This document shows, one piece after another, positions 14,047-38,238 of a stretch of DNA of 38,989 bases. The first letter of the stretch is position 1; the number at the start of each line of letters is the position of its first letter. The position numbers and the translations under genes were made by a program. The notes under the pieces were generated by a model that worked only from the letters and a program-made list of their open reading frames with translations, did not search any database and was not told where the DNA came from. This stretch comes from an uncultured Candidatus Saccharibacteria bacterium (GTDB lineage: Bacteria > Patescibacteriota > Minisyncoccia > UBA6257 > UBA9933): contig CAZXNT010000001.1 of the NCBI GenBank assembly GCA_964642155.1, forward strand, positions 131,238 through 170,226, given 5' to 3'.

Positions 14047-14081
14047 TAGTAAGCAGGAATTGGTAATTAGTAAATAGGATA
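14047..14081. repeat. Solo arm of the YAGKAAN 7-bp array
   Basis: TAGTAAG CAGGAAT TGGTAAT TAGTAAA TAGGATA. Confidence 0.75.
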
Positions 14082-22252: not shown

Positions 22253-23209
22253 ATGAATATTATTAATGGTAAACAAATATCTCAAAAAATTATTGATGAA
22301 TTAAAATCGCGGCCAAAGCCGGATAAAATTTTTGCGGCGGTTTTGGTTGGCGACCCTTCGGCAAGGACTTCGAGTGAGCCTCAGTCGAACTCCTCAGGGC
22401 AAGCAAGCTTGAGTTTTTTAAAACAAAAAGAAAAAGTTGCCAAAGAGCTCGGCATTGATTTTCGGATTTACAAATTTCAAGAGCCGGTTGGCGGATTCAC
22501 CAACGATTTTTTACGGAAAGAAGTCGGCAAAATCGCTTTATTGAAAAGAGTCGGCGGAGTGATTATCCAATTGCCCTTGCCGGAGCAGATTAATCGCCAG
22601 TATGTTTTAAACGTTATTCCGCGCGAAAAAGATGTTGATGTTTTAGGGGAGCGTGCCCTCGGAGCGTTTTGTGTTGGTCGCAATCCGGTTTTACCCCCGC
22701 CAGTCGAAGTCGTAAAAGAAATAATTGAAAATTGTAAACCCCGACGCCGAAGGATCGGGGAGCCGATTGAAGCATCGGCTTTAAAAATTGAAAATTTGCG
22801 CATAGCCGTTGTGGGCGCGGGATTTTTAATCGGCAAACCGATTGCGGTTTGGCTGATGGATAAAGTTTGGGAATTAAAAATTTTTAAAAGGGGCAGTGAT
22901 TTATCAGAATTAAAAAATTATGATTTAATTATTAGCGGAACAGGCGTTGCGGGTTTAATAAAGCCGGAGATGTTAAAACAAGGCGCGGGGATAATCGATT
23001 TCGGATATTCAATTAATGAAATCGGAAAAATTAGCGGCGATTTTGACACAAGCAATCTACAATCTACAAACTATGTCCCTACGGGACATCTCTCGAAGGG
23101 AGACAATCTACAACCCGGTTTTTACACGCCCACTCCTAATGGCACGGGTCCGATATTGGTGGCAAAAATTTTTGAGAATTTTTATAAATTAAATTCAGGC
23201 GAGTTATAA
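22253..23209 (+). CDS. folD: Methylenetetrahydrofolate dehydrogenase/cyclohydrolase with three repeat-derived inserts
   Basis: IINGK, VLVGD, IQLPLP, EKDVD, GKP, TPTPNGTGP. Confidence 0.9.
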   Translation: MNIINGKQISQKIIDELKSRPKPDKIFAAVLVGDPSARTSSEPQSNSSGQASLSFLKQKEKVAKELGIDFRIYKFQEPVGGFTNDFLRKEVGKIALLKRVGGVIIQLPLPEQINRQYVLNVIPREKDVDVLGERALGAFCVGRNPVLPPPVEVVKEIIENCKPRRRRIGEPIEASALKIENLRIAVVGAGFLIGKPIAVWLMDKVWELKIFKRGSDLSELKNYDLIISGTGVAGLIKPEMLKQGAGIIDFGYSINEIGKISGDFDTSNLQSTNYVPTGHLSKGDNLQPGFYTPTPNGTGPILVAKIFENFYKLNSGEL

Positions 23210-24934: not shown

Positions 24935-26128
24935 TTATAGCAGATTAAAGATTTTTTTAATAATTTTAAGCGCGTTGTTTATTTCTTCTCTTGTCGTGAA
25001 TTTTCCCAAACTAAATCGCAAACTGCTTTTGATTTTTTTATCGCTTAATCCGATGGCTTTGAGGACGTGCGACGGTTTAGTTACGCGCGCCGAGCAAGCG
25101 GAACCGCTTGAAACCGCGATGCCGTTTAAGTCCAGCTCCATCAATAAATCTTGCGTGTTTTGATTGGGGAAATAAATATTTAGAATGTTTGGCAGTTTGT
25201 TGCCTAATGCTCCATTTATCTTCGCGTCAGGATAATTTTTTTTAATTTCTTTCCAAAAATAACCAGTCAATTCAAAAATTCGTTTTGTTTCTTTTCCGCG
25301 ATTTTGAACAGCTAATTCAACGGCTTTTGTAAAGCCGACGATTCCAGCGACATTTTCAGTGCCCGAGCGCAATCCGAATTCCTGACCGCCGCCGGTGGTA
25401 TTAGATTGTAGATTGTAGATTGTAGATTGTAGATTGCGATACAACATTCCAACACCTTTTGGGCCGTAAATTTTATGCGCTGACAAAGTCATTAAATCAA
25501 CGCCAAGTTTATTAACATCGCAATCCAAAAATTGAAAGGCCTGAACGGCGTCAGTGTGGAGCAACGGCAAAGCCGTTGCTAATTCAGAATTGTTTTTTCT
25601 TAATTCTGCATTCTGCATTTTAAATTCAGAAATCAGCTTGCTGATTTCTGTGATTGGCTGGATTGTGCCGATTTCATTATTGGCATACATAATAGAAACC
25701 AAAACAGTTCGCTCATTAAGCGATTCTTTTAATTTTTTTAAATTAACAATCCCCTGTTTATTGACCGGTAAATAAATTATTTCAATCCCTTCGCGTTCTA
25801 AGTCCCGGCAAGTTTCTAAAATAGAATCATGTTCAATTGAAGAAACAATAATGCGAGGATTTGGGATTTTAAATCTTTTAACAGCGCCGCGCAAGGCCAA
25901 GTTATTCGCTTCGGTCGCCGACCCGGTAAAAATTATTTCTCGAAAATCCGCGCCAATGGCTTTGGCGATTTTTTCTCGCGATTCGTCAACCGCTGCCATG
26001 GCTTCCTGCCCAAAAAAATGGAGCGAGCCGGGATTGCCGAATTTGTCGGAAAAATAAGGAGCCATCGCTTTTTTTACCAAGGGGTCCATCGGCGTTGTTG
26101 CCGCGTAATCAAGATATATCTTCTTCAT
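24935..26128 (-). CDS. iscS: Cysteine desulfurase, IscS/NifS family
   Basis: YLDYAATTP, GNPGS, SATEANN, HTDAVQ, SAHKIYGPKG, SSGSACS. Confidence 0.92.
   Translation of the reverse strand: MKKIYLDYAATTPMDPLVKKAMAPYFSDKFGNPGSLHFFGQEAMAAVDESREKIAKAIGADFREIIFTGSATEANNLALRGAVKRFKIPNPRIIVSSIEHDSILETCRDLEREGIEIIYLPVNKQGIVNLKKLKESLNERTVLVSIMYANNEIGTIQPITEISKLISEFKMQNAELRKNNSELATALPLLHTDAVQAFQFLDCDVNKLGVDLMTLSAHKIYGPKGVGMLYRNLQSTIYNLQSNTTGGGQEFGLRSGTENVAGIVGFTKAVELAVQNRGKETKRIFELTGYFWKEIKKNYPDAKINGALGNKLPNILNIYFPNQNTQDLLMELDLNGIAVSSGSACSARVTKPSHVLKAIGLSDKKIKSSLRFSLGKFTTREEINNALKIIKKIFNLL
25402..25436. repeat. (TAGATTG)x5 tandem repeat inside iscS
   Basis: Five perfect 7-mers, translated NLQSTIYNLQS. 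Confidence 0.95.
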
Positions 26129-29696: not shown

Positions 29697-30037
29697 ACAA
29701 TTGAATAGATTTGGAGTGAGGCCAAATCAAAAGTGTTCGCGAATAACGCGAATTTTTAAGCGAATAACGCGAATAATTTATTTTATTAGCATTATTTGAA
29801 TTTAATTCGCATTATTAGCGATTACTCTTGTGGTCTCGCTTCAAAAGCGGATTTTTTTTATCCCGATTAATTTGATACCACGGCTATTCTATCAAGTCGT
29901 CCCTCCCCCATAAGGGGAGAGGTGGTCGATGATTTGTGGAAACAGTCTTCTGAAAATAAACTTAACTAAAAATAAATAATTTGCGAATCTTAATGGCCTC
30001 ACTATTAAGTTCAGTAAATAAAAACTTACAAAAAATA
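29697..30037 (+). promoter_or_regulatory. Long structured 5' leader
   Basis: 15-bp stem 29710-29724/29831-29845 with three G-U pairs; second stem-loop 29888-29940. Confidence 0.55.
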
Positions 30038-33000
30038 ATGAGTATTAAAAAATTTTTCACAGGATTTGCCGCTGTTGCTTTAACAGTAGCGGTAATCGGT
30101 TCCGGCGTTAGCGCCGCAACAACTGAAGAATTACAAGCTCAGATTGCCAGCTTGCTTGCCCAAATTACGGCATTGCAAACTCAATTGTCAGGCACTGCTG
30201 CTCCATCTGCATACAGCTTTTCAACCAATTTAACCATTGGCTCAAAAGGCGACGCAGTAACGAGCTTGCAGAGCTTCTTGGAATCCAAGGCTATGTTGAC
30301 AATGCCGTCAGGCGTTGCCAAAGGTTACTTTGGAAATTTGACAAAATCTTCTTTGGCTAAATATCAGGCTTCAGTCGGAATTTCTCCGGCCGCCGGATAC
30401 TTTGGTCCGAAGTCAAGAGCTTACGTTAATTCTTTGGCTGCTGCTCCGACAACCGGAGGAACAACCACAACCCCGACAGTCCCGACAAGCGGTTTAACGC
30501 TTGCTTTGGCTTCGGATAATCCGGCAGCTGCCGCTATTCCGAAAGGCGCGGCAGGTATTACAGTTTTGAAATTCACCGTTTCAGGAAGCGGTACTCTTGA
30601 TGCTTTGACATTTAAGAGAACCGGAATCGGCGCGACCGCAGATTTTGCGTCAGCCGGTTTCTACATTTATGATGGCGATACTCGCTTGACGAGCGGAAGG
30701 AGTATTAATTCCACTTCTCACGAAGTTTCATTCCTTAATTTGGCTTTGAAAATTGAAGGAGTTAAAACTTTGAAATTGGTGGCTGATATTTCTTCAAGCG
30801 CCACAGCTAGTAATCGCAGCGTCTTTGGATTGGTTTTGGCTGTCGGCACTCCGACACCAACTGGTTCATTGGCGGGTAATGAAATGAGCGTTGGCGGTCA
30901 GCAAGTTGGCGGCGTTACTGCCACCAGCGGCGCGGCTCCGACCAACCCGAAAGTTGGACAGAAAGAAGCTCTCTTGGCTGAATTCAAACTTACGGCCAGT
31001 TCAACAGAAGACGTTAAGGTGATGAGAGTTGCTTTGACCGAAGGCGGTTCAATCGCGAACAGCAATCTTTCTAACTTCACTTTGAAGCAGGGGGGCAATA
31101 CTGTCGCGACCGCTTCCGCTATTGGCGCGAAAGATTTAGTGGTGTTTAGTTTCACCGCCCCGTTCTTACTTGAAAAAGGGCAGGAAAGGACTTTCAGCCT
31201 TTACGGCGACATCAGCGGTTTAACCCGTTCTGATGACACAGTCGTCTTCTATTTTGACAGCAAGTCTGATATTTACGCCATTGGCCAGACCTATGGTTAT
31301 TCGGTTGACCCGGATATCACTGGAATGGACACCACCGGCGAATCGGACACCTTGACTGTTCAGGGAGGCGAAATCACCATTACCTTTAATGGTCCGTTGT
31401 CCGGCGATATCGTTACTAGAGCGCAAGACGCGGTCTTGTATGATTTCACTATTGCTGCCAAAAACAGCGTTGAAATCAGGAACTTGAGATTTAATGTTTC
31501 AAGCACCGGCGCCATCGCCATTTACAACGACTTTAAAGTTTGGGATGCGACTGCCAACAAAGTGTTGACCAGCGCGACCGATGTCACCACCGCTTCTTCA
31601 ACCAATAAGACTTTCACCGACACAATTAATATTGCTGCCGGCGAATCAAAGAGGATGAAAGTAACGGCTGATGTTGATTCAACTGACAGCACTAGCGGTA
31701 CCGTTAAAGTCCACTTGCTCGCTTTCCAGAGCAATGACATCAGAAACCTGGATAACAACACTTATGTTGCAACCAGCGTCATTATTCCTAACAGCACAGT
31801 AAGCGGAAACACTCAGACCGTTAAAGCCGCGACCTTAGACCTTCAATTGTCAGCGTCTCCGACTTCCCAGACTTATGTCCAAGGAACTACCGGCGTTACG
31901 CTCGCGGGTCTTAGTTTTAGGGCGATTTCAGATGACATTAAATTGAGCTCCGTTAAAATTACCGCCACTTCTTCAACCGGAACTTTGACTTCGGGCGAAG
32001 TCCAGAGTCTTGGATTGTATGACGGCAGTATTTTATTGGGGAGCACAAAGTCATTGGATACAACGGCCTTGACTGCCACTTTTGACAATCTCAATTTGAC
32101 GATTGTCAAAGGCGTTACCAAGACTTTGACTCTTAAGGGCAATATTTCCAGCGACGCGACTGACACGGATGTTTACTACTTCTATGTCGCCGCGGTTAGC
32201 AGCAGTAATATTGTCGCTTATGACAAAGACGGCAACAGTGCCACACTTTCCGGCACAGCCGCGAATTCCGGCGCTACTGTTTCACACACCATCACCACAA
32301 CCGGCAATGTAACAGTTGCGGTTGCTCCTGATGATACTGAATCAGAAGCTGGTATTGTTATCGCTGGCACCGAAAGCGTTTTAGCGAAATTCCGTTTCAC
32401 CGCTGCTAATGAGCAGATGACCGTTAATAAACTTCAATTAATAGTTGTTCCGACTTCAAGCGCGACAGCCACTTCAACAGCTTCGTCTGACGAAGTTCCG
32501 ACTGTCAAACTTTACGACGGTTCAACTCAGGTTGGAGCCATTGCTGGTTACACTGTTCAGGCGTCTGGAGATAACGCCGGTATCGCGGTTATTGAAAACC
32601 TCGGCTGGGTTGTTCCTAAGAACGGCAGTAAAGTTTTGACTGTTAAGGGCGTGCTCAACACGATTTCAGGAGGCGCTGATACCGGTTCTTCGGTCTACGT
32701 GAGTGCTCATGCTTCAAACTTTGAAGCGCAAGGCGCGAGCGCTAAAGATACGACTATTACGGCTGCCGTTGGCAACCAGAAAGTTGTGTACAAGACCAAG
32801 CCGACTATCGCTGCTCCAACCGCGGCTTCAGCTAAACTCACTGTCGGACAAATTCCGGTAATGAAGTTTAAGATTAAAGCCGATGGTCCGGAACAGGTTG
32901 CTTTCAAGAAAATCCAATTCAAAGTTTCAATGACTGGCGCTACGATGTCAGCGGTTACCGCTGTTCCGAGCACAACCGGTAATGTTGCTTTGAAAGATGT

Positions 33001-33409
33001 TTCTGCGGGTTCTAACTTGAACATTTCTTCCGCGTTCAGCGCATCTGCCACATCTGGCACTACGCAGAGCACTATTGCAGGAGGAGCTACAGGTTATGTT
33101 TCATTGGTTCTTAACTCCGAACAGGTAATCTCTGCCGGAGCTGAGAAAGAATATGAATTGCAATTAACTTTTGCTGACGTTTCCGGCACTGTCGGAGCCG
33201 CTTCAGTAATTGCCAGCATTCATAGAGGTGAAACTACCCTTGTCAGCGCGACTACCGTGTCTGGCGTGGAAACCGCTACTTTGGATGGCGAACCTTCGTT
33301 TGTTTGGTCTGATTACTCGGTTACGAGTCATGACACAACAACGAGTGATTGGGCGAACGGCGTTCTCGTAAAGATTATGCCGTCCAGCTTGATTACCATC
33401 AGCAACTAA
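30038..33409 (+). CDS. Large secreted Ser/Thr/Ala-rich surface (S-layer-like) protein with peptidoglycan-binding domain
   Basis: Signal peptide, LQAQI coiled coil, L.IGSKG..V..LQ..L..GYFG.LT PG-binding motif, repeated beta-rich domains. Confidence 0.8.
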   Translation: MSIKKFFTGFAAVALTVAVIGSGVSAATTEELQAQIASLLAQITALQTQLSGTAAPSAYSFSTNLTIGSKGDAVTSLQSFLESKAMLTMPSGVAKGYFGNLTKSSLAKYQASVGISPAAGYFGPKSRAYVNSLAAAPTTGGTTTTPTVPTSGLTLALASDNPAAAAIPKGAAGITVLKFTVSGSGTLDALTFKRTGIGATADFASAGFYIYDGDTRLTSGRSINSTSHEVSFLNLALKIEGVKTLKLVADISSSATASNRSVFGLVLAVGTPTPTGSLAGNEMSVGGQQVGGVTATSGAAPTNPKVGQKEALLAEFKLTASSTEDVKVMRVALTEGGSIANSNLSNFTLKQGGNTVATASAIGAKDLVVFSFTAPFLLEKGQERTFSLYGDISGLTRSDDTVVFYFDSKSDIYAIGQTYGYSVDPDITGMDTTGESDTLTVQGGEITITFNGPLSGDIVTRAQDAVLYDFTIAAKNSVEIRNLRFNVSSTGAIAIYNDFKVWDATANKVLTSATDVTTASSTNKTFTDTINIAAGESKRMKVTADVDSTDSTSGTVKVHLLAFQSNDIRNLDNNTYVATSVIIPNSTVSGNTQTVKAATLDLQLSASPTSQTYVQGTTGVTLAGLSFRAISDDIKLSSVKITATSSTGTLTSGEVQSLGLYDGSILLGSTKSLDTTALTATFDNLNLTIVKGVTKTLTLKGNISSDATDTDVYYFYVAAVSSSNIVAYDKDGNSATLSGTAANSGATVSHTITTTGNVTVAVAPDDTESEAGIVIAGTESVLAKFRFTAANEQMTVNKLQLIVVPTSSATATSTASSDEVPTVKLYDGSTQVGAIAGYTVQASGDNAGIAVIENLGWVVPKNGSKVLTVKGVLNTISGGADTGSSVYVSAHASNFEAQGASAKDTTITAAVGNQKVVYKTKPTIAAPTAASAKLTVGQIPVMKFKIKADGPEQVAFKKIQFKVSMTGATMSAVTAVPSTTGNVALKDVSAGSNLNISSAFSASATSGTTQSTIAGGATGYVSLVLNSEQVISAGAEKEYELQLTFADVSGTVGAASVIASIHRGETTLVSATTVSGVETATLDGEPSFVWSDYSVTSHDTTTSDWANGVLVKIMPSSLITISN

Positions 33410-33440
33410 CCGCATTGAGTTTTTCAATAGCTCATAATTG

Positions 33441-33474
33441 AAACAAAAAGGCCCCTTTCGGGGTCTTTTTGTTT
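33441..33474 (+). terminator. Intrinsic terminator
   Basis: AAACAAAAAGGCCCC TTTC GGGGTCTTTTTGTTT. Confidence 0.85.
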
Positions 33475-33494
33475 GTGATATTCTTATAAGACTT

Positions 33495-35789
33495 ATGAGA
33501 CAAATAAGATTTATTATTAAATCACTTTTATTTTTAACCGTCTTAACTCCCCTTATTGTGGTTCAAAAAATTCCCTTTCCTTTTATTATCGGGAAAATGA
33601 TTTTTTTCAGGAGCGTTATTGAAATCGCCCTGATTTTGTTTTTAATTTATTTTTTATGGAGAGGATTTAAGCCTTTAAACTTTAAAACCTTTAAACATTT
33701 AAACTTTCTTTATATTTTTTTAGTTTTATTTTTAATCTCTCTAATTATCAGCACTGTTTTCGCCGTAAATCCTTACCGCGCTTTTTGGGGCGATTTGGAA
33801 AGAGGCGAAGGATTGTTCGGTTTTCTTCATTTTTTCGTGTTTTTAGGAATGTCAGTCGCAATTTTCAGTAAAAAAGATTGGCTTAATTTTTTTAGAATTT
33901 CCCTTGGCGTCGGTTTTATTTTGATTTTTTACGCTTTTTTACAGTATTTTAATGTCCGAAATTTCCCCTTTTTATTCATATCAGAAGGAAGGCCTTTTTC
34001 TTTTATCGGTAATCCGGCTTTTTTGGCAGCTCATATGTTTTTTTTAATGATGTCCGCTGTTGTCGTATTTTTTGAAACCCCAAGGCATTCTTTTCAGCTT
34101 TTAAGCTTTTCAGCTTCTAGACTTTATTTCTGGCGATATTTCTCTTTTTTAATAATAATTTTATCAGCGCTAACAATTTTTCTCACCGCCACCCGTGGGG
34201 CGATTGTCGGTTTGGGAGCCGGTATTTTCGCTTTATTTTTATATGGCATATTTCAAAAACAATCGGCATTGTTGCGTAAATTTTCAATCACGCTAATTTG
34301 TTTTTTAACTATTTTTTCCGGAACTTTTTGGCTTACTCGCGACGCTGAAATTTGGCAAAAAATCCCGGGTTTTAATCGTTTAGCCCAAACAATGGCTTCC
34401 GGCAAAGTTGACGCATCAACGCAATTCCGTTTAATGACATGGCAATTAAGTTTAGAAGCTTTTAAAGAAAAGCCGATTTTCGGCTGGGGAAACGAAAATT
34501 TTCTTGTCGCTTACGAAAAACATTATAATCCGGATTATGCTATTTACGGAGAATCTTGGCTGGACAGAGCGCATAATAAAATTTTTGACGTTCTCGTGAT
34601 GCAGGGAATTTTTGGGTTGTTGGCGTATTTGGGAATTTTCGGCGCTGCTTTTTATTTTTTATTTAAACAAAAATCGCGCGAATCTGCGTTTGTAACGGCA
34701 GCCATAATCGGTTATTTCGTCCAAAATCTTTTTGTAATGGACCAGATTATTTCCGATATTACTTTCTTCGCGATGGTTGGATTTATTATTTCGATTAGTA
34801 AACAGGAACAAGTAATTAGTAAACAGGGAAACAAGGGCGGGAAATTATTCCTAGTTACTAGTTTCTTGTTGCTAATTCCTATCTTCGTTCTTGGTTATTC
34901 CTTGTATTTTTATAATTACATTCCTTATATCCAGGCAAAAATAATAAATGAAGTTAAGGGAATTGAACGCGCGAGTTTAATTGAGAATAAATTAAGGGAA
35001 GCAACCAACATTTATAATTTCAGCCAATTTGATTTGAGGGCTTATATTGTTGATTATTATAATAATCAACAGACATATATTTTTCAGGATGCGTCTTTTA
35101 AACCGCTTTCAGATTTTTTTGTGAGTTTAATTGATGATATTATTAAAAGGGAACCGCACGACGTAAGGATGTTCATTAGAAAATCACAAATGCTTCAAAG
35201 CAAGGCAATTAACGATATGAGTTTATATAAAAAAGCCGAAGATTCAATGAAGCAGGCGATAGAATTGGCGCCCAATCGTCAGGAGTTATATTATAATTTG
35301 GCATTTGTTTTACTTGGCCAGGAAAAATTTCAAGAAGCCGTTGAGGCGAGTATTAAAGCGATTGAATTAAATTCTGACGTGGCGCGCGCTCATTATCATT
35401 TGGCTTTTGTCCTAGCGGTAATCGGTCCGCAAAATGCGGATGAAATTATTGAAGAAATGGAAATTGCCGATAAATTAAGCCCAAATCTTGAAAGTTTAAG
35501 AGCGGGAGACCATAATATTATTGCTTTGATTTACAGTCGGCTGGGTCGTTCCGATAAAGTGGCGGAAATTGTATTAAAAAAAATCAATTTAGGATTGCCC
35601 ACGAAATTTCTTCTTATTTATTATGAGGAGGCCCTAGGTTATTTTGCCGCTATGCGCGATGCCGATAATTTTATAAAAACGGCGAAAGACGTTATAAATT
35701 CAATTTCCGTACTTAAAGACGATATGGATGTTTTAATTGATTTGGCGGAAAAAGGAAACTGGACAATAATTGACAGCCTAGCAAAATAA
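33495..35789 (+). CDS. O-antigen ligase (Wzy_C) family protein with C-terminal TPRs
   Basis: ERGEG, GNP, TRGA, R...W, PIFGWG.ENF, DRAHN; TPR-like tail. Confidence 0.88.
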   Translation: MRQIRFIIKSLLFLTVLTPLIVVQKIPFPFIIGKMIFFRSVIEIALILFLIYFLWRGFKPLNFKTFKHLNFLYIFLVLFLISLIISTVFAVNPYRAFWGDLERGEGLFGFLHFFVFLGMSVAIFSKKDWLNFFRISLGVGFILIFYAFLQYFNVRNFPFLFISEGRPFSFIGNPAFLAAHMFFLMMSAVVVFFETPRHSFQLLSFSASRLYFWRYFSFLIIILSALTIFLTATRGAIVGLGAGIFALFLYGIFQKQSALLRKFSITLICFLTIFSGTFWLTRDAEIWQKIPGFNRLAQTMASGKVDASTQFRLMTWQLSLEAFKEKPIFGWGNENFLVAYEKHYNPDYAIYGESWLDRAHNKIFDVLVMQGIFGLLAYLGIFGAAFYFLFKQKSRESAFVTAAIIGYFVQNLFVMDQIISDITFFAMVGFIISISKQEQVISKQGNKGGKLFLVTSFLLLIPIFVLGYSLYFYNYIPYIQAKIINEVKGIERASLIENKLREATNIYNFSQFDLRAYIVDYYNNQQTYIFQDASFKPLSDFFVSLIDDIIKREPHDVRMFIRKSQMLQSKAINDMSLYKKAEDSMKQAIELAPNRQELYYNLAFVLLGQEKFQEAVEASIKAIELNSDVARAHYHLAFVLAVIGPQNADEIIEEMEIADKLSPNLESLRAGDHNIIALIYSRLGRSDKVAEIVLKKINLGLPTKFLLIYYEEALGYFAAMRDADNFIKTAKDVINSISVLKDDMDVLIDLAEKGNWTIIDSLAK
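34796..34881. repeat. Empty inverted YAGKAAN array pair (5+5 units), in frame
   Basis: TAGTAAA CAGGAAC AAGTAAT TAGTAAA CAGGGAA ... ATTCCTA GTTACTA GTTTCTT GTTGCTA ATTCCTA. Confidence 0.85.
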
Positions 35790-35792
35790 AAT

Positions 35793-37178
35793 ATGTTTTT
35801 AAAATTTTCTAAAATATTACTGTATTTAGTGCCGTTTAGCGCGGTGATTGTTTCGCGTAGCACGCTTTTCCCGTTTATTGTCGGCAAGTATGTTTTTTTC
35901 AGGACAACTGTGGCTTTGGCGGCGATATTTTTTATGTGGAATTGGGCGATAAATAGTAAACAGAAACTAGTAACTAGTAAACAGGAATTAGTAAACAGGA
36001 ATCAAAAATCAGTCCTAGTTACTAGTTACCAGTTCCTAATTACTAATGCTTTAGTCATTGCCGTTTCCATCTTCGCCTTAATCTACATTATTTCCGGGTT
36101 TTTTGGTTATAATCCGTCATTTTCTTTTTGGTCAAATTTTGAACGCGGCGAAGGTGGCTTGCAAATGCTTTTTTTGTTAATTTATTTTCTTTTGCTTACG
36201 GTTATTTTTAAGGATGATGAATCGTGGCAAAAAATGTTGACAGCCGCATCTTGGGCAGCCGCATTAGTGGTTGGCTATGGCGTGGGAGCGATTTTAGGAA
36301 TTGATCGTTTTGTGGGCGAAGGATTTTGCGCCAGATTTGCCGGCTCATTGGGCAACTCGGCTTATCTCGGAACTTATATGTTATTCGCGATTTTTTATGC
36401 CCTTTATATTGCGATACAAAACTTACAAACTTACAAACTTAAGAACTTAAAAACTTTAACGTGGTTTGGCTTGGCGTTTGTTTTCGTGATTTTTTTGTTA
36501 TTAAGCCAGACGCGCGGAGCGTTTCTGGGATTGGGGATAGCAATCATTTTCGGCTTGTTTTATTTATTTTTTAATTTGTCGGTTTCTAAAAAAATAAGAT
36601 TAATTTCTTTATCGCTTGCGGCTATTTTAATTATCAGCGGTTCGCTGGCGATTAAATTTAGAAATTCCATAAATTTATCAATGCCTTTTTGCGGAGAGCA
36701 AGGGACAAGATTACTGGATGTTTCTTTAAGCACACAAAATTTTCAAACCAGACTATGGCTTTGGCAGCAATCAATAATTATTTTTAAGGAAAAACCGGTT
36801 TTCGGCTGGGGAATGGAAAATTTCAACGTAGCGTTTGAAAAGCATTACGACCCGCGCTTTGAAGTTTGGTATGATCGGGCGCATAATATCTTTTTTGATT
36901 ATCTTGTAATGACTGGAATTTTAGGACTATTGAGTTTTGTCGGAATTTTTATTGTTTATTATTGGCAATTCTTTAAGGCACAAAAGTCCATATTAAGTCC
37001 GTATCAGTCCGCGTTATTATTTTCTCTGCCAGTGGCTTATCTTGTCCAAGGATTGGTTCTCTTTGACGTTTTGCCGATATATATAAACCTATTTTTATTC
37101 CTCGCATTCGCGAATTATATATTTAGTAAACAGGAACTAGTAAACAGTAAACAGGAATTAGGAAGCAGTAAACAATAA
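35793..37178 (+). CDS. O-antigen ligase family paralog, N-terminal membrane part
   Basis: ERGEG, GNS, TRGA, PVFGWG.ENF, DRAHN; stops within the 7-bp array. Confidence 0.88.
   Translation: MFLKFSKILLYLVPFSAVIVSRSTLFPFIVGKYVFFRTTVALAAIFFMWNWAINSKQKLVTSKQELVNRNQKSVLVTSYQFLITNALVIAVSIFALIYIISGFFGYNPSFSFWSNFERGEGGLQMLFLLIYFLLLTVIFKDDESWQKMLTAASWAAALVVGYGVGAILGIDRFVGEGFCARFAGSLGNSAYLGTYMLFAIFYALYIAIQNLQTYKLKNLKTLTWFGLAFVFVIFLLLSQTRGAFLGLGIAIIFGLFYLFFNLSVSKKIRLISLSLAAILIISGSLAIKFRNSINLSMPFCGEQGTRLLDVSLSTQNFQTRLWLWQQSIIIFKEKPVFGWGMENFNVAFEKHYDPRFEVWYDRAHNIFFDYLVMTGILGLLSFVGIFIVYYWQFFKAQKSILSPYQSALLFSLPVAYLVQGLVLFDVLPIYINLFLFLAFANYIFSKQELVNSKQELGSSKQ
35954..36045. repeat. Empty inverted YAGKAAN array pair (7+5 units), in frame
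   Basis: Encodes SKQKLVTSKQELVNRNQKSVLVTSYQFLIT. Confidence 0.9.
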
Positions 37179-37626
37179 ACAGGAAACAGGAACTAGAAAT
37201 ATGAAAACTGAAGTTAAAAATTTTTACGATTTAAAAGTATGGCAAGACACTCATAAAGTTGTTCTTGAAATTTATAAAATTACCAAAGATTTTCCAAAAG
37301 AAGAGCAATTTGGTTTAATAAGTCAGATGCGACGCGCAGCGTCATCAATTGCCGCGAATATCGCCGAGGGATTTGGAAGATTTCATTATAAAGATAAAAT
37401 TAGGTTTTATCAGCAAGCAAGAGGTTCAGCTGTTGAATTTCAAAATCATATATTTTTATCGCAAGATCTTGGTTATTTAACAAAGCAGAAAGCCCGTGAT
37501 TTATTTCAACAAATCGATGTTGTATTAAAAGAATTAAACGGTTTAATAAATTCAATAAATAAACAATTAAATTTATAGTTTTTAGTTTTTAATTCCTATT
37601 TACTAATTACTAGTTTCTAGTTACTA
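37124..37626 (+). mobile_element. Four-helix-bundle gene cassette between inverted 7-bp arrays
   Basis: 11 phased YAGKAAN units (37124-37200) end at the ATG; 7 complementary units (37578-37626) start at the stop; mobility is inferred. Confidence 0.6.
37201..37578 (+). CDS. Four helix bundle protein (23S-IVS protein / Avd-like fold)
   Basis: F.DL.VWQ, FPKEEQFGL.SQMRRAA.SI.ANIAEG, ARGS..E, DLGY. Confidence 0.93.
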   Translation: MKTEVKNFYDLKVWQDTHKVVLEIYKITKDFPKEEQFGLISQMRRAASSIAANIAEGFGRFHYKDKIRFYQQARGSAVEFQNHIFLSQDLGYLTKQKARDLFQQIDVVLKELNGLINSINKQLNL

Positions 37627-37635
37627 ATAATAAAT

Positions 37636-38238
37636 ATGTCTAAAGATTTTAAAATAATCATTGCTTTTACATCAACCATCTTATTGTTGGTGCTTGTCTA
37701 TTTTGGCGCTTTTTTGCCTCTTAAAAAATCCCAATCATACATTAATGCTGTTAAGGGTTCGTCGCAAGTCAGGTCGGTGCAGGAGTTTAATAAGTTATTC
37801 GGCAAAGCTTTGGATTTTTATTCGCCAGTCGGGCATGGCGAAGTTGTTTATGCTTATTTGAATATATTGATTAATATCGCGCAAAACCAGCAAAACAAGG
37901 AAATTATCGATATTTTATTAAAAGAAGCCGACAAGCAAATGGAGCCGATTTTAGAACAAGATAAGGGAAACGCTTTTTTTCAAAGTTTGCAAAGTTATGC
38001 TTTGCTTTACGAATTGGCGGGCAATAAATTTCAGGATATGGCTTATTATCAAAAAGCCGCCGGTATTTATGAAATCGCGCTAAAACACAGCCCGGGCCGG
38101 CAAAATTTGCTTTACGGTTTGTTTAGGTCTTATAATGTTTTGGGTAATAAAGAAAAAATCAAAGAAACAGCGGAGATTATCAATAAATATTGGCCGGAAA
38201 GTAAAAGCGCGTTGCAACAATATGAACTATCGCGATAA
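37636..38238 (+). CDS. TM + TPR-like protein, probable detached C-terminal part of the ligase paralog
   Basis: Matches layout of paralog 1 tail: TM then LPLKKSQ vs IPYIQAK; ALKHSPGRQNLLYGL vs AIELAPNRQELYYNL. Confidence 0.7.
   Translation: MSKDFKIIIAFTSTILLLVLVYFGAFLPLKKSQSYINAVKGSSQVRSVQEFNKLFGKALDFYSPVGHGEVVYAYLNILINIAQNQQNKEIIDILLKEADKQMEPILEQDKGNAFFQSLQSYALLYELAGNKFQDMAYYQKAAGIYEIALKHSPGRQNLLYGLFRSYNVLGNKEKIKETAEIINKYWPESKSALQQYELSR

Follow-up and report, generated by a model that had tools for sequence, protein, structure and literature searches.

Inverted heptamer arrays enclose a four-helix-bundle gene between a ligase and its neighbouring tail gene in a Saccharibacteria genome: a candidate repeat-protein system

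Two questions about bacterial genomes have long stood open: the function of the protein encoded in intervening sequences (IVSs) of 23S rRNA genes, since 1993, and the excess of heptamer repeats, since 1990-2007. Systems that couple a gene to dispersed repeats are known. In REPIN-RAYT systems (doublets of repetitive extragenic palindromes and their associated tyrosine transposases), a gene of low copy number lies between inverted copies of its own repeat, which is also dispersed as singlets and inverted doublets. Rickettsia palindromic elements are short palindromes of fixed sequence, without tandem substructure, that lie in frame in protein genes and are tolerated in loops; to our knowledge no protein gene is associated with them. 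The Avd family, which serves diversity-generating retroelements (DGRs), binds nucleic acid with a reverse transcriptase (RT). Here we analysed a stretch of 38,989 nucleotides (nt) from an uncultured Candidatus Saccharibacteria bacterium (assembly GCA_964642155.1, contig CAZXNT010000001.1, forward-strand positions 131,238 to 170,226), called the window below. It holds a gene of the four-helix-bundle (4HB) family PF05635, to which IVS proteins belong, enclosed by inverted arrays of heptamers (the arms) and lying between a gene for an O-antigen-ligase-like protein and one for a second protein, the tail. Arms and gene (37124-37624) are referred to as the cassette. The genome comprises 676 kb in 10 contigs (numbered with C), with 37% G+C, 99.7% completeness and ~613-620 crude genes; related genomes are numbered with G. 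Its size suggests to us a genome of the candidate-phyla-radiation type.

A similar arrangement has been described in Coxiella. According to the available text of PMC4990558, the ATG of the S23p gene in its 23S IVS is preceded by 2-3 tandem GACAGAT units, with a copy number that varies among strains, and the IVS has a 28-bp terminal stem that is cut by RNase III in vitro. In the window, the arms were read directly in the register of YAGKAAN heptamers chosen by the first-pass annotation, which had been made from the letters and the open reading frames (ORFs). The left arm consists of TAGTAAA, CAGGAAC, TAGTAAA, CAGTAAA, CAGGAAT, TAGGAAG, CAGTAAA, CAATAAA, CAGGAAA, CAGGAAC and TAGAAAT, followed by ATG at 37201; the right arm begins with the stop codon TAG at 37576 and reads TAGTTTT, TAGTTTT, TAATTCC, TATTTAC, TAATTAC, TAGTTTC and TAGTTAC. 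The annotation's description of eleven units up to the start codon and seven complementary ones from the stop was confirmed by this reading, by Tandem Repeats Finder (TRF; period 7, 9.3 copies at 37128-37192 and 5.6 copies at 37590-37628) and by a repeat search in which 37118-37160 pairs with 37590-37632 (43 nt, 81% complementary, 429 nt apart). The long stem that it had proposed agrees with the predicted fold of the 531-nt RNA closed by the arms (-105.9 kcal/mol, z-score -4.39, 0/100 shuffles equally stable). If at most one mismatch is allowed, the window contains 13 copies of the motif AGTAAACAGKAA, where 0.38 would be expected, and none of 100 shuffles attained 13.

The family named by the annotation was likewise confirmed by profile matches to PF05635 (130.4 bits, cut-off 33.8, covering profile positions 2-106 of 106) and TIGR02436 (122.9 bits, cut-off 24). 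By sequence match, the closest solved structure is XCC0516 (PDB 2GSC, 5 chains, E 2.3e-20), whose family is called pentameric in the title of Lin et al. 2006 as cited elsewhere. Of the family motif GxxRxxxSxxxNxxE, given in the available text of PMC3936711, the window protein has RxxxSxxxNxxE (R45, S49, N53, E56), the leading G being Q42; across 18 sequences N53 and E56 never vary, and R45 and S49 show at least 90% conservation. The final 17 codons and the stop of the ligase ORF come from the left arm. There is no nuclease or recombinase inside the cassette, and the Y1 transposase profile PF01797 has no match in this 99.7%-complete genome although it matches 6 of 14 control genomes, in line with the annotation's view of a transposase-free element. 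PADLOC matched no defence family to the window 4HB protein, and inspection by eye found no direct duplication at the borders of the cassette or of two gene-less doublets of the same arm family. We regard the assignment of family and architecture as practically certain.

Table 1. Coordinates of the cassette, its neighbours and related repeats in the window
Feature	Position	Strand	Basis
Left arm, 11 tandem heptamers ending at ATG	37124..37200	+	Sequence, inverted-repeat search, TRF, fold
4HB gene (PF05635/TIGR02436), 125 aa, fills the hairpin loop	37201..37578	+	Profiles; nearest solved structure 2GSC
Right arm, 7 heptamers complementary to left arm, the first being the stop codon	37576..37624	+	Sequence, inverted-repeat search, TRF, fold
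O-antigen-ligase-like paralog 2 (Wzy_C, Pfam 76.7 bits)	35793..37178	+	Pfam, ORF list, sequence
Tail gene, 200 aa, no Pfam family, separate ORF beside the ligase in most relatives	37636..38238	+	Pfam, ortholog junctions
Ligase paralog 1, Wzy_C fused to TPR repeats	33438..35789	+	Pfam
Gene-less inverted doublet, same arm family, in frame, in the loop of paralog 1 that joins its ligase and TPR parts	34796..34880	+	85% complementary to right arm over 34 nt; fold
Gene-less inverted doublet, same arm family, in frame, N-terminal loop of paralog 2	35954..36047	+	83% identical to left arm over 64 nt; TRF; fold
Solo arm, same family, intergenic	14047..14080	+	Motif scan, fold
In-frame period-8 array TTTAAACC in paralog 1, 4.9 copies; belongs to a different family among the repeats spread through the genome	33666..33704	+	TRF
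In-frame period-8 array AAAACTTA, 4.9 copies, in paralog 2	36418..36456	+	TRF
Heptamer array TAGATTG x5, in frame within a minus-strand gene	25402..25436	+	TRF

Enclosure by inverted arrays is a general feature of this gene family in the genome and its relatives. In this genome, each of the three PF05635 genes lies between inverted heptamer arms, and the unit differs from one gene to the next; the family matches 28 of 41 related genomes, with up to 8 matches per genome. The flanks of 33 full-length 4HB genes from this genome and relatives were compared with 456 control placements in the same loci. The inverted-repeat score reached at least the 99th control percentile for 28 of the 33, so that the check proposed in the first-pass annotation came out in its favour, with units of 7, 8 or 9 nt. 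TRF detected arrays on both sides of 24 genes, on one side of 8 and on neither side of 1; the upstream period was 7 in 19 cases, 8 in 6 and 9 in 4. The loop between the arms measures 358-480 nt and contains just the ORF (medians of 7 nt from arm end to ATG and 4 nt from stop to arm), paired arm length is 25-51 nt, and arrays extend up to 77 nt. Among the 613 crude genes here, array-type arms were unique to 4HB genes; where other genes scored high, both of their flanks carried plain palindromes. Repeat period and unit follow the protein clades in a maximum-likelihood tree of 34 proteins: TAGAATW is found in three genomes of two families, AATTTTC in four genomes, period 9 in a pair, and period 8 in two clades (3/3 and 4/4 members).

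The genome also carries a large population of such arrays away from 4HB genes. Period 7 is its commonest TRF period (197 of 986 rows). Period-7 arrays of at least 4 copies number 113 in 676 kb here and 76 in 576 kb of other 4HB-bearing genomes, against 11 in 576 kb of genomes without the gene, while period-6 repeats are equally common in the three sets. When two arrays lie at most 60 nt apart, they are inverted complements in 11 of 14 cases, versus 12% of random pairs. Period-7 arrays show a second length mode at 29-35 nt, which periods 6, 8, 9 and 10 do not. The arm families recur elsewhere (counting the query's own place, the window left arm at 4 places, the right arm of the copy on C7 at 15, the copy on C5 at 2-3), and 103 of 124 heptamer arrays of at least 27 nt fall within one mismatch of a unit from a resident arm set, compared with 43% of random heptamers. 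Single-linkage grouping of the units was useless, all 124 arrays merging into one group.

Of these 124 arrays, 85 are contained entirely in crude ORFs; a further 23 lie between genes, and the remaining 16 cross the end of an ORF. Those in ORFs are in frame and in variable loops of proteins that, by eye, we take to be housekeeping enzymes. Clean 33-nt insertion was considered and rejected: over 244 query-homologue pairs for 42 in-ORF arrays, the net gap had a median of 2 amino acids (aa) and a mode of 0, versus an array median of 11 aa. In these alignments, which lie in variable loops and show no definable insertion border or target duplication, in-ORF arrays often replace sequence and do not add to it. 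At one such place (C2:94211-94248), a period-8 array codes for YKLKNLKTYK in a conserved small protein, between its SPTF and HxDCY motifs; the same residues occur in G017, which has no PF05635 match. Since G004 has unrelated residues of equal length there, the array takes the place of sequence and does not add any.

Array density was measured for 7-9-nt units in 30 genomes, with 4HB genes and 250 nt on either side masked. It correlates with the PF05635 count (rho 0.83, some of the genomes being related). The median is 6.7 arrays per 100 kb (range 1.7-12.6) in the 12 genomes without a 4HB gene and 23.8 (6.6-68.4) in the 18 with one, for samples of which some span just 16-20 kb and in which contigs of the 4HB-bearing genomes were partly picked because a search hit had given their length. 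The idea that a pentamer reads five units was tried on the length distributions. Period-7 arrays peak at 4-5 copies, but because period 8 has bumps at both ~3.5 and ~4.5-5 copies, a fixed unit count and a fixed length of ~33 nt are indistinguishable, and the idea is kept only as speculation.

The association extends to other phyla. The available text of Rehm et al. (PMC4692102) reports ~186 GGGAATC arrays per Xanthomonas genome, with 70-75 convergent pairs. Species genomes were scanned for four GGGAATC units, giving at least 120 stretches; among the matches listed, PF05635 is present in 9 of 10 genomes picked solely for those units; the figure for control genomes is 1 of 14. Xanthomonas euroxanthea, Dokdonella immobilis and Luteimonas sp. 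each have one PF05635 gene, which in all three (3/3) lies between inverted GGGAATC-like arrays; in Xanthomonas its neighbours are a biotin-carrier and a biotin-carboxylase gene. Three tandem GGGAATC units (at most 2 mismatches) have 335, 111 and 36 matches in these three genomes, and a control pattern has 0. Of 10 genes on cyanobacterial plasmids that bear the annotation 'four helix bundle' or 'S23 ribosomal', 9 have flanking heptamer arrays (8 inverted, 1 direct). Inverted flanks were found at 4 of 5 Moorena copies (score threshold 12, as for Gemmatimonadaceae below), and 8 copies from four other phyla comprise 5 inverted, 1 direct and 2 without arrays.

The site of the cassette was then read in relatives. 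The first-pass annotation had taken the two ligase paralogs of the window for filled and empty alleles of one site, with the cassette splitting paralog 2 from its TPR tail and the halves possibly rejoined or bypassed at the RNA level. The tail protein occurs in 26 of 41 genomes searched, the window's own included, and the ligase-tail junction was read in 11 loci. In 6 of the 11 (G014, G012, G010, G036, G025, G006), the ligase has its own stop and the tail begins a few to ~65 nt further on, with neither cassette nor arrays; in G020, ligase and tail are fused, also without arrays. The gap in G008 and G009 is occupied by a 4HB cassette of a different protein clade with AATTTTC-like arms, and likewise, judged by coordinates, a different-clade cassette lies in that of G038 and G001. 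G013 has a remnant: an 80-nt gap with a left arm and ~22 nt of the 5' part of an ORF of the AATTTTC-type clade (20/22 positions), then the tail ATG. Since ligase and tail are already two ORFs in six junctions, the cassette did not split a gene; it very probably entered a pre-existing intergenic gap, and therefore no rejoining or bypass of RNA is needed. On the sequences compared, this gap has been occupied, emptied and re-occupied over time. As for the TPR tail of the annotation, the downstream ORF is present, but its resemblance to the TPR part of paralog 1 is weak (E 1e-4 over 47 aa).

Paralogs 1 and 2 are 32% identical and, judged from their sequences, are old paralogs, not alleles. Relatives of paralog 1 have one continuous ORF in 14 of 14 loci. 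Arrays are present in 5 of 7 junction loops read: G002 has the same hairpin in a longer form, G001 a period-8 direct array, and G008 and G009 other arrays, while G016 and G036 have none. The 'equivalent position' in paralog 1 thus reads as a permissive junction loop, not as one site filled in one gene and empty in the other. The arm pair in frame in paralog 1 is real and folds (z -2.31, 5/200 shuffles equally stable), but its spacer is ~18-22 nt by our reading instead of 16. The second gene-less pair, at 35954, and the solo arm at 14047 are both real, the former folding as a hairpin (z -3.82, 0/200 shuffles) and the latter unstructured (z +1.03). The coding footprints expected by the annotation are also present, as the ligase codons supplied by the left arm and the in-frame hairpins of both paralogs, and a deletion derivative exists in the G013 remnant. 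It had further stated that it would be wrong if orthologs were split without the cassette and if arrays were not associated with 4HB genes elsewhere; the split is what we found, while the association elsewhere is strong.

Taken together, these results incline us, somewhat beyond an even judgement, to read the locus as an IVS-type hairpin cassette of a repeat-protein system shaped like REPIN-RAYT. The PF05635 gene in the loop, with arms of inverted short-unit arrays, would represent the design of an ORF-bearing IVS placed between two protein genes. The cassette would have entered the existing ligase-tail gap, its left arm now terminating the ligase ORF. In the transcript, the arms are predicted to form a stem of ~40 bp, and RNase III, whose gene is encoded in the genome, would cut this stem by analogy with rRNA IVSs; such cutting would make the insertion tolerable within an operon or rRNA. 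Each 4HB gene would be flanked by its own repeat family, with gene-less arrays and doublets spread intergenically and in variable loops of proteins. The 4HB protein, from a family pentameric in the solved relative and related to nucleic-acid-binding Avd, would bind its cognate tandem units and so maintain or spread the arrays. A functional tie between protein and arrays is rather probable. Copying by template switching or gene conversion between arrays, instead of cut-and-paste, is a more tentative proposal, favoured because inspection showed no target duplications and because arrays often stand in place of other sequence. Our observations cover the architecture, the predicted stem, the translation of arms, presence, absence and remnants at orthologous sites, recurrence across phyla and the correlation with array density; RNase III cutting at this locus, binding of repeats by the protein and the mode of copying are what we infer.

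A broader proposal can be put forward tentatively: PF05635 proteins may be the missing trans-acting partner of bacterial short tandem repeats, namely those of cyanobacteria, GGGAATC in Xanthomonas and the arrays of the present candidate-phylum lineage, with a pentamer reading about five units of 7-9 nt and driving transposase-free copying into new sites, in-frame protein patches included, with ORF-bearing rRNA IVSs as a special case.

Several observations weigh against a repeat-protein system of this kind. In Logan contigs of DNA runs, no read joins across the cassette, and neither informative contig shows an empty allele: one from a related organism (X5, ~91% alike) covers 36735-37119 and diverges exactly at the left-arm start, and another (X6) joins 37159 to 37596 with 2 letters between, its shorter side being just 33 letters, and probably represents another locus or organism with a gene-less doublet. 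The genome has more repeat families than 4HB genes, and AT-rich heptamers are alike by composition, so that family assignment is soft. The tracking of units with clades shows co-inheritance, not co-evolution, related genomes sharing labels; the density correlation can be read in either direction, and relatives among the genomes do not count as independent. Five of the 33 4HB genes fall below the control threshold. Farther away, 1 of the 10 cyanobacterial plasmid copies has no arrays, only 2 of 7 copies in a Gemmatimonadaceae genome have inverted flanks, 2 copies outside this phylum have direct instead of inverted arrays, and Vibrio jasicida has a GGGAATC array but no PF05635 match. For Coxiella, the available text of PMC4990558 concludes that S23p is a decaying protein which is probably not produced.

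The main rival is that the gene is a passenger: the host would make the arrays, through slippage or as terminator or insulator hairpins, and a selfish 4HB gene, able to survive only within inverted doublets, would be moved between doublets of one family, or lost, by ordinary homologous recombination between arms, its protein having no role in the arrays. The cassette contains no recombinase and no Y1 transposase was found in the genome; paired arms of 25-51 nt, within arrays of up to 77 nt, could support recombination, with gene-less doublets of the same families as potential targets. Different 4HB clades in the same ligase-tail gap across genera would follow, and both the density correlation and the tracking of units with clades are equally expected if cassettes live only where arrays are. 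This explanation, however, gives no reason for the scarcity of arrays without the gene (at most 12.6 per 100 kb in 12/12 samples), and leaves unexplained why in three Xanthomonadales genera a single-copy gene keeps the dominant unit as its arms at one conserved site and why protein residues are invariant across clades. Nor does slippage alone predict a second length mode at period 7 only. We consider it unlikely, though it is the alternative to be taken most seriously.

Less probable still is a purely regulatory role, in which the 4HB protein would be a sequence-specific RNA- or DNA-binding regulator, the arrays operators of a post-transcriptional regulon that is autoregulatory at its own gene, and nothing mobile. 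Such a role would suit arrays placed a few nt from 4HB start and stop codons and a single-copy gene at a conserved Xanthomonadales site. In the available texts, Xanthomonas and Nostoc arrays lie mostly 0-50 bp from ORFs (PMC4692102), and a post-transcriptional network has been proposed for the TAACTGA heptamers of Beggiatoaceae (PMC4679880). Operators would, however, hardly be expected wholly inside ORFs, in frame and in variable loops, where 85 of the 124 long heptamer arrays are; and presence or absence at a site, different families in one loop and deletion remnants speak of turnover, not of conserved operators. The first-pass model of an intact ligase-TPR gene broken by the cassette, with paralog 1 as the empty state and the halves rejoined by RNA excision or bypass, is scarcely credible: the arms do pair and paralog 1 does run continuously through a gene-less doublet at the corresponding junction, but six of 11 junctions have separate ligase and tail ORFs without a cassette, the paralogs share 32% identity, the same loop holds unrelated arrays in other genera, the left arm contains an in-frame stop, and the tail starts from an ATG of its own, just as its orthologs do.

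The repeat-protein reading ties two old questions together. In at least 4 phyla, a 4HB gene sits within inverted arrays of the same unit that is scattered over its genome, and such arrays become sparser where no 4HB gene is found; the function of the IVS protein and the heptamer excess both become directly testable. If the missing-partner proposal is true, these genes and repeats would form a new class of protein-repeat genetic element. There are also consequences for annotation. Arrays supply C-termini, in-frame loop segments, a pilin-type leader (on C7, by eye) and in-frame links between a 4HB gene and the next gene (in three genomes). More than one in ten genes of this 676-kb genome may carry an array patch (85 arrays, ~620 crude genes), and heptamer arrays may cause miscalls of CRISPR arrays or cas genes.

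Translated arms were seen at the other 4HB copies of the genome. A TAGAATW-clade 4HB ORF lacks a stop in three genomes (C5:31524-31838, G012, G025) and reads through the downstream arm, with a SLNPKSYILNSKS-type linker, into a membrane-protein gene, giving open frames of 264-269 aa. The third copy, at C7:19249-19640, has an in-frame TGA, which makes it a probable pseudogene; translation of its right arm yields the N-terminal leader (MKIENYKLKINN...) of a gene that presumably encodes a type IV pilin-like protein, its start (GFTLVELL) having been recognised by eye. In gene-less doublets of the C7 family, ATGAATCAATTT... could be an ORF-start remnant or a mere part of the array and was not counted as evidence; the G013 remnant, which extends past its array, was counted. 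A strand polarity of arms, with a purine-rich upstream arm as serial ribosome-binding sites, was examined and dropped (17 versus 10 of 27, p 0.25).

Other repeats and neighbours deserve mention. A GC-rich palindromic element of ~30 nt, of the type GTC(C/T)CC..CGGGA..TC(T/C)C..GGGAGAC, is nested in heptamer arrays at 5 places: ~23070-23110 of the window (C1:154320), C1:75322, C2:17279, C6:8114 and C7:11590. The C2, C6 and C7 copies are each part of a larger element of ~150 nt, common to all three and without differences over the ~100 nt compared, and the palindrome looks like an element that targets heptamer arrays. Another class comprises near-perfect palindromes of 26-40 nt (e.g. TTCCAATATTCTCAAGAATATTGGAA) on both sides of ordinary genes, including those at C3:50117-50941, C3:16585-17112 and C1:73819-74430; these are REP-like and not tandem. 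The minus-strand gene that bears the TAGATTG array is, from inspection by eye only, presumably cysteine-desulfurase-like. Directly upstream of both ligase genes lies a 1142-aa low-complexity ORF rich in Ala, Thr and Ser (29981-33409).

In cyanobacteria, two 4HB genes flanked by heptamer arrays lie inside cas operons, as cas6-4HB-cas4 on a Pseudanabaena plasmid, with direct arrays (AAAAGCT x14 and AAAAGCC x9), and as cmr2-4HB-cmr3 on a Picosynechococcus plasmid. The available text of PMC3936711 calls the family 'cas-associated', with 18 such genes in cas loci; array-flanked 4HB genes inside cas operons may be the reason for that report. Among the matches listed, at least 4 exact GGGAATC units occur in Xanthomonadales, Gemmatimonadaceae, Moorena and other cyanobacteria, Acidobacteriota, Thermoanaerobaculia, Elusimicrobia, a Thermoplasmata archaeon and Vibrio jasicida. 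The presence of this unit in such distant groups reflects either repeated origin or transfer.

Among known systems, classical DNA transposons and miniature inverted-repeat transposable elements fit poorly and were rejected, since the arm unit differs among all three copies of this genome and no target duplication was seen by eye. DGR accessory proteins resemble the 4HB protein in fold, with weak profile similarity (bAvd 24.4 bits, DivGenRetAVD 26 bits), but the scores are below the curated cut-offs (40 and 80 bits) and no RT, template or variable repeat is adjacent. The sole DGR of the genome lies on C3 at ~28.8-32.5 kb and has a 296-aa RT, an Asn-rich template-like stretch and a 601-aa target gene with a matching C-terminus. 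It also includes a divergent 132-aa helical ORF, Avd-like by eye, lies 1.4 kb from the RNase III gene and is separate from the IVS-type genes. RT as a general partner was rejected, since the sole RT belongs to this canonical-looking DGR, RT is found in 17 of 41 relatives, and 14 of 28 4HB-bearing genomes have no RT match. The arrays resemble Rickettsia palindromic elements in lying in frame inside proteins, but they are tandem and associated with 4HB genes.

The abundance of tandem heptamers near ORF ends is shared with the short tandemly repeated repetitive sequences of cyanobacteria and with the GGGAATC, GGGGA(C/T)T and TAACTGA heptamers of Xanthomonas, Nostoc and Beggiatoaceae, and the likeness to Xanthomonas goes further, the GGGAATC family forming the arms of the single 4HB gene in three Xanthomonadales genomes. 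Such heptamers are treated as G-quadruplex or regulatory elements in the available texts of PMC4692102 and PMC4679880, in which a 4HB gene is not mentioned, '23S' being absent from the former and 'intervening', 'S23' and 'four helix' from the latter; their supplementary repeat tables could already show it. The separate pieces are already in print: the IVS ORF, the Coxiella IVS heptamers, and the heptamer excess in Xanthomonas, Nostoc and Beggiatoaceae. In the main texts of a library made up largely of open journals, we found no paper that joins these pieces and none that names both XCC0516 and GGGAATC; among papers that combine terms for the IVS protein with terms for heptamers, only the one on Coxiella has heptamers beside the ORF.

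The rRNA IVSs of Leptospira and Coxiella share with the cassette a PF05635 ORF in the loop of a terminal inverted-repeat stem and, in Coxiella, heptamers directly before the ATG (available text of PMC4990558). Unlike them, the cassette lies between Wzy_C ligase and tail ORFs, whose synteny is kept in relatives, and not in 23S helix 25 or 45; both of its arms are long tandem arrays, partly translated, and gene-less copies of them are dispersed in the genome. From REPIN-RAYT systems, the cassette differs in its protein, a small four-helix bundle and not a Y1/HUH transposase, and in its repeats, tandem arrays of 7-9-nt units instead of a fixed palindrome, many of them in frame inside genes. It resembles these systems in that cognate repeats stand in inverted orientation on both sides of the 4HB gene and recur, as singlets or doublets, elsewhere in the genome, and in that the Xanthomonadales gene occupies one conserved chromosomal site.

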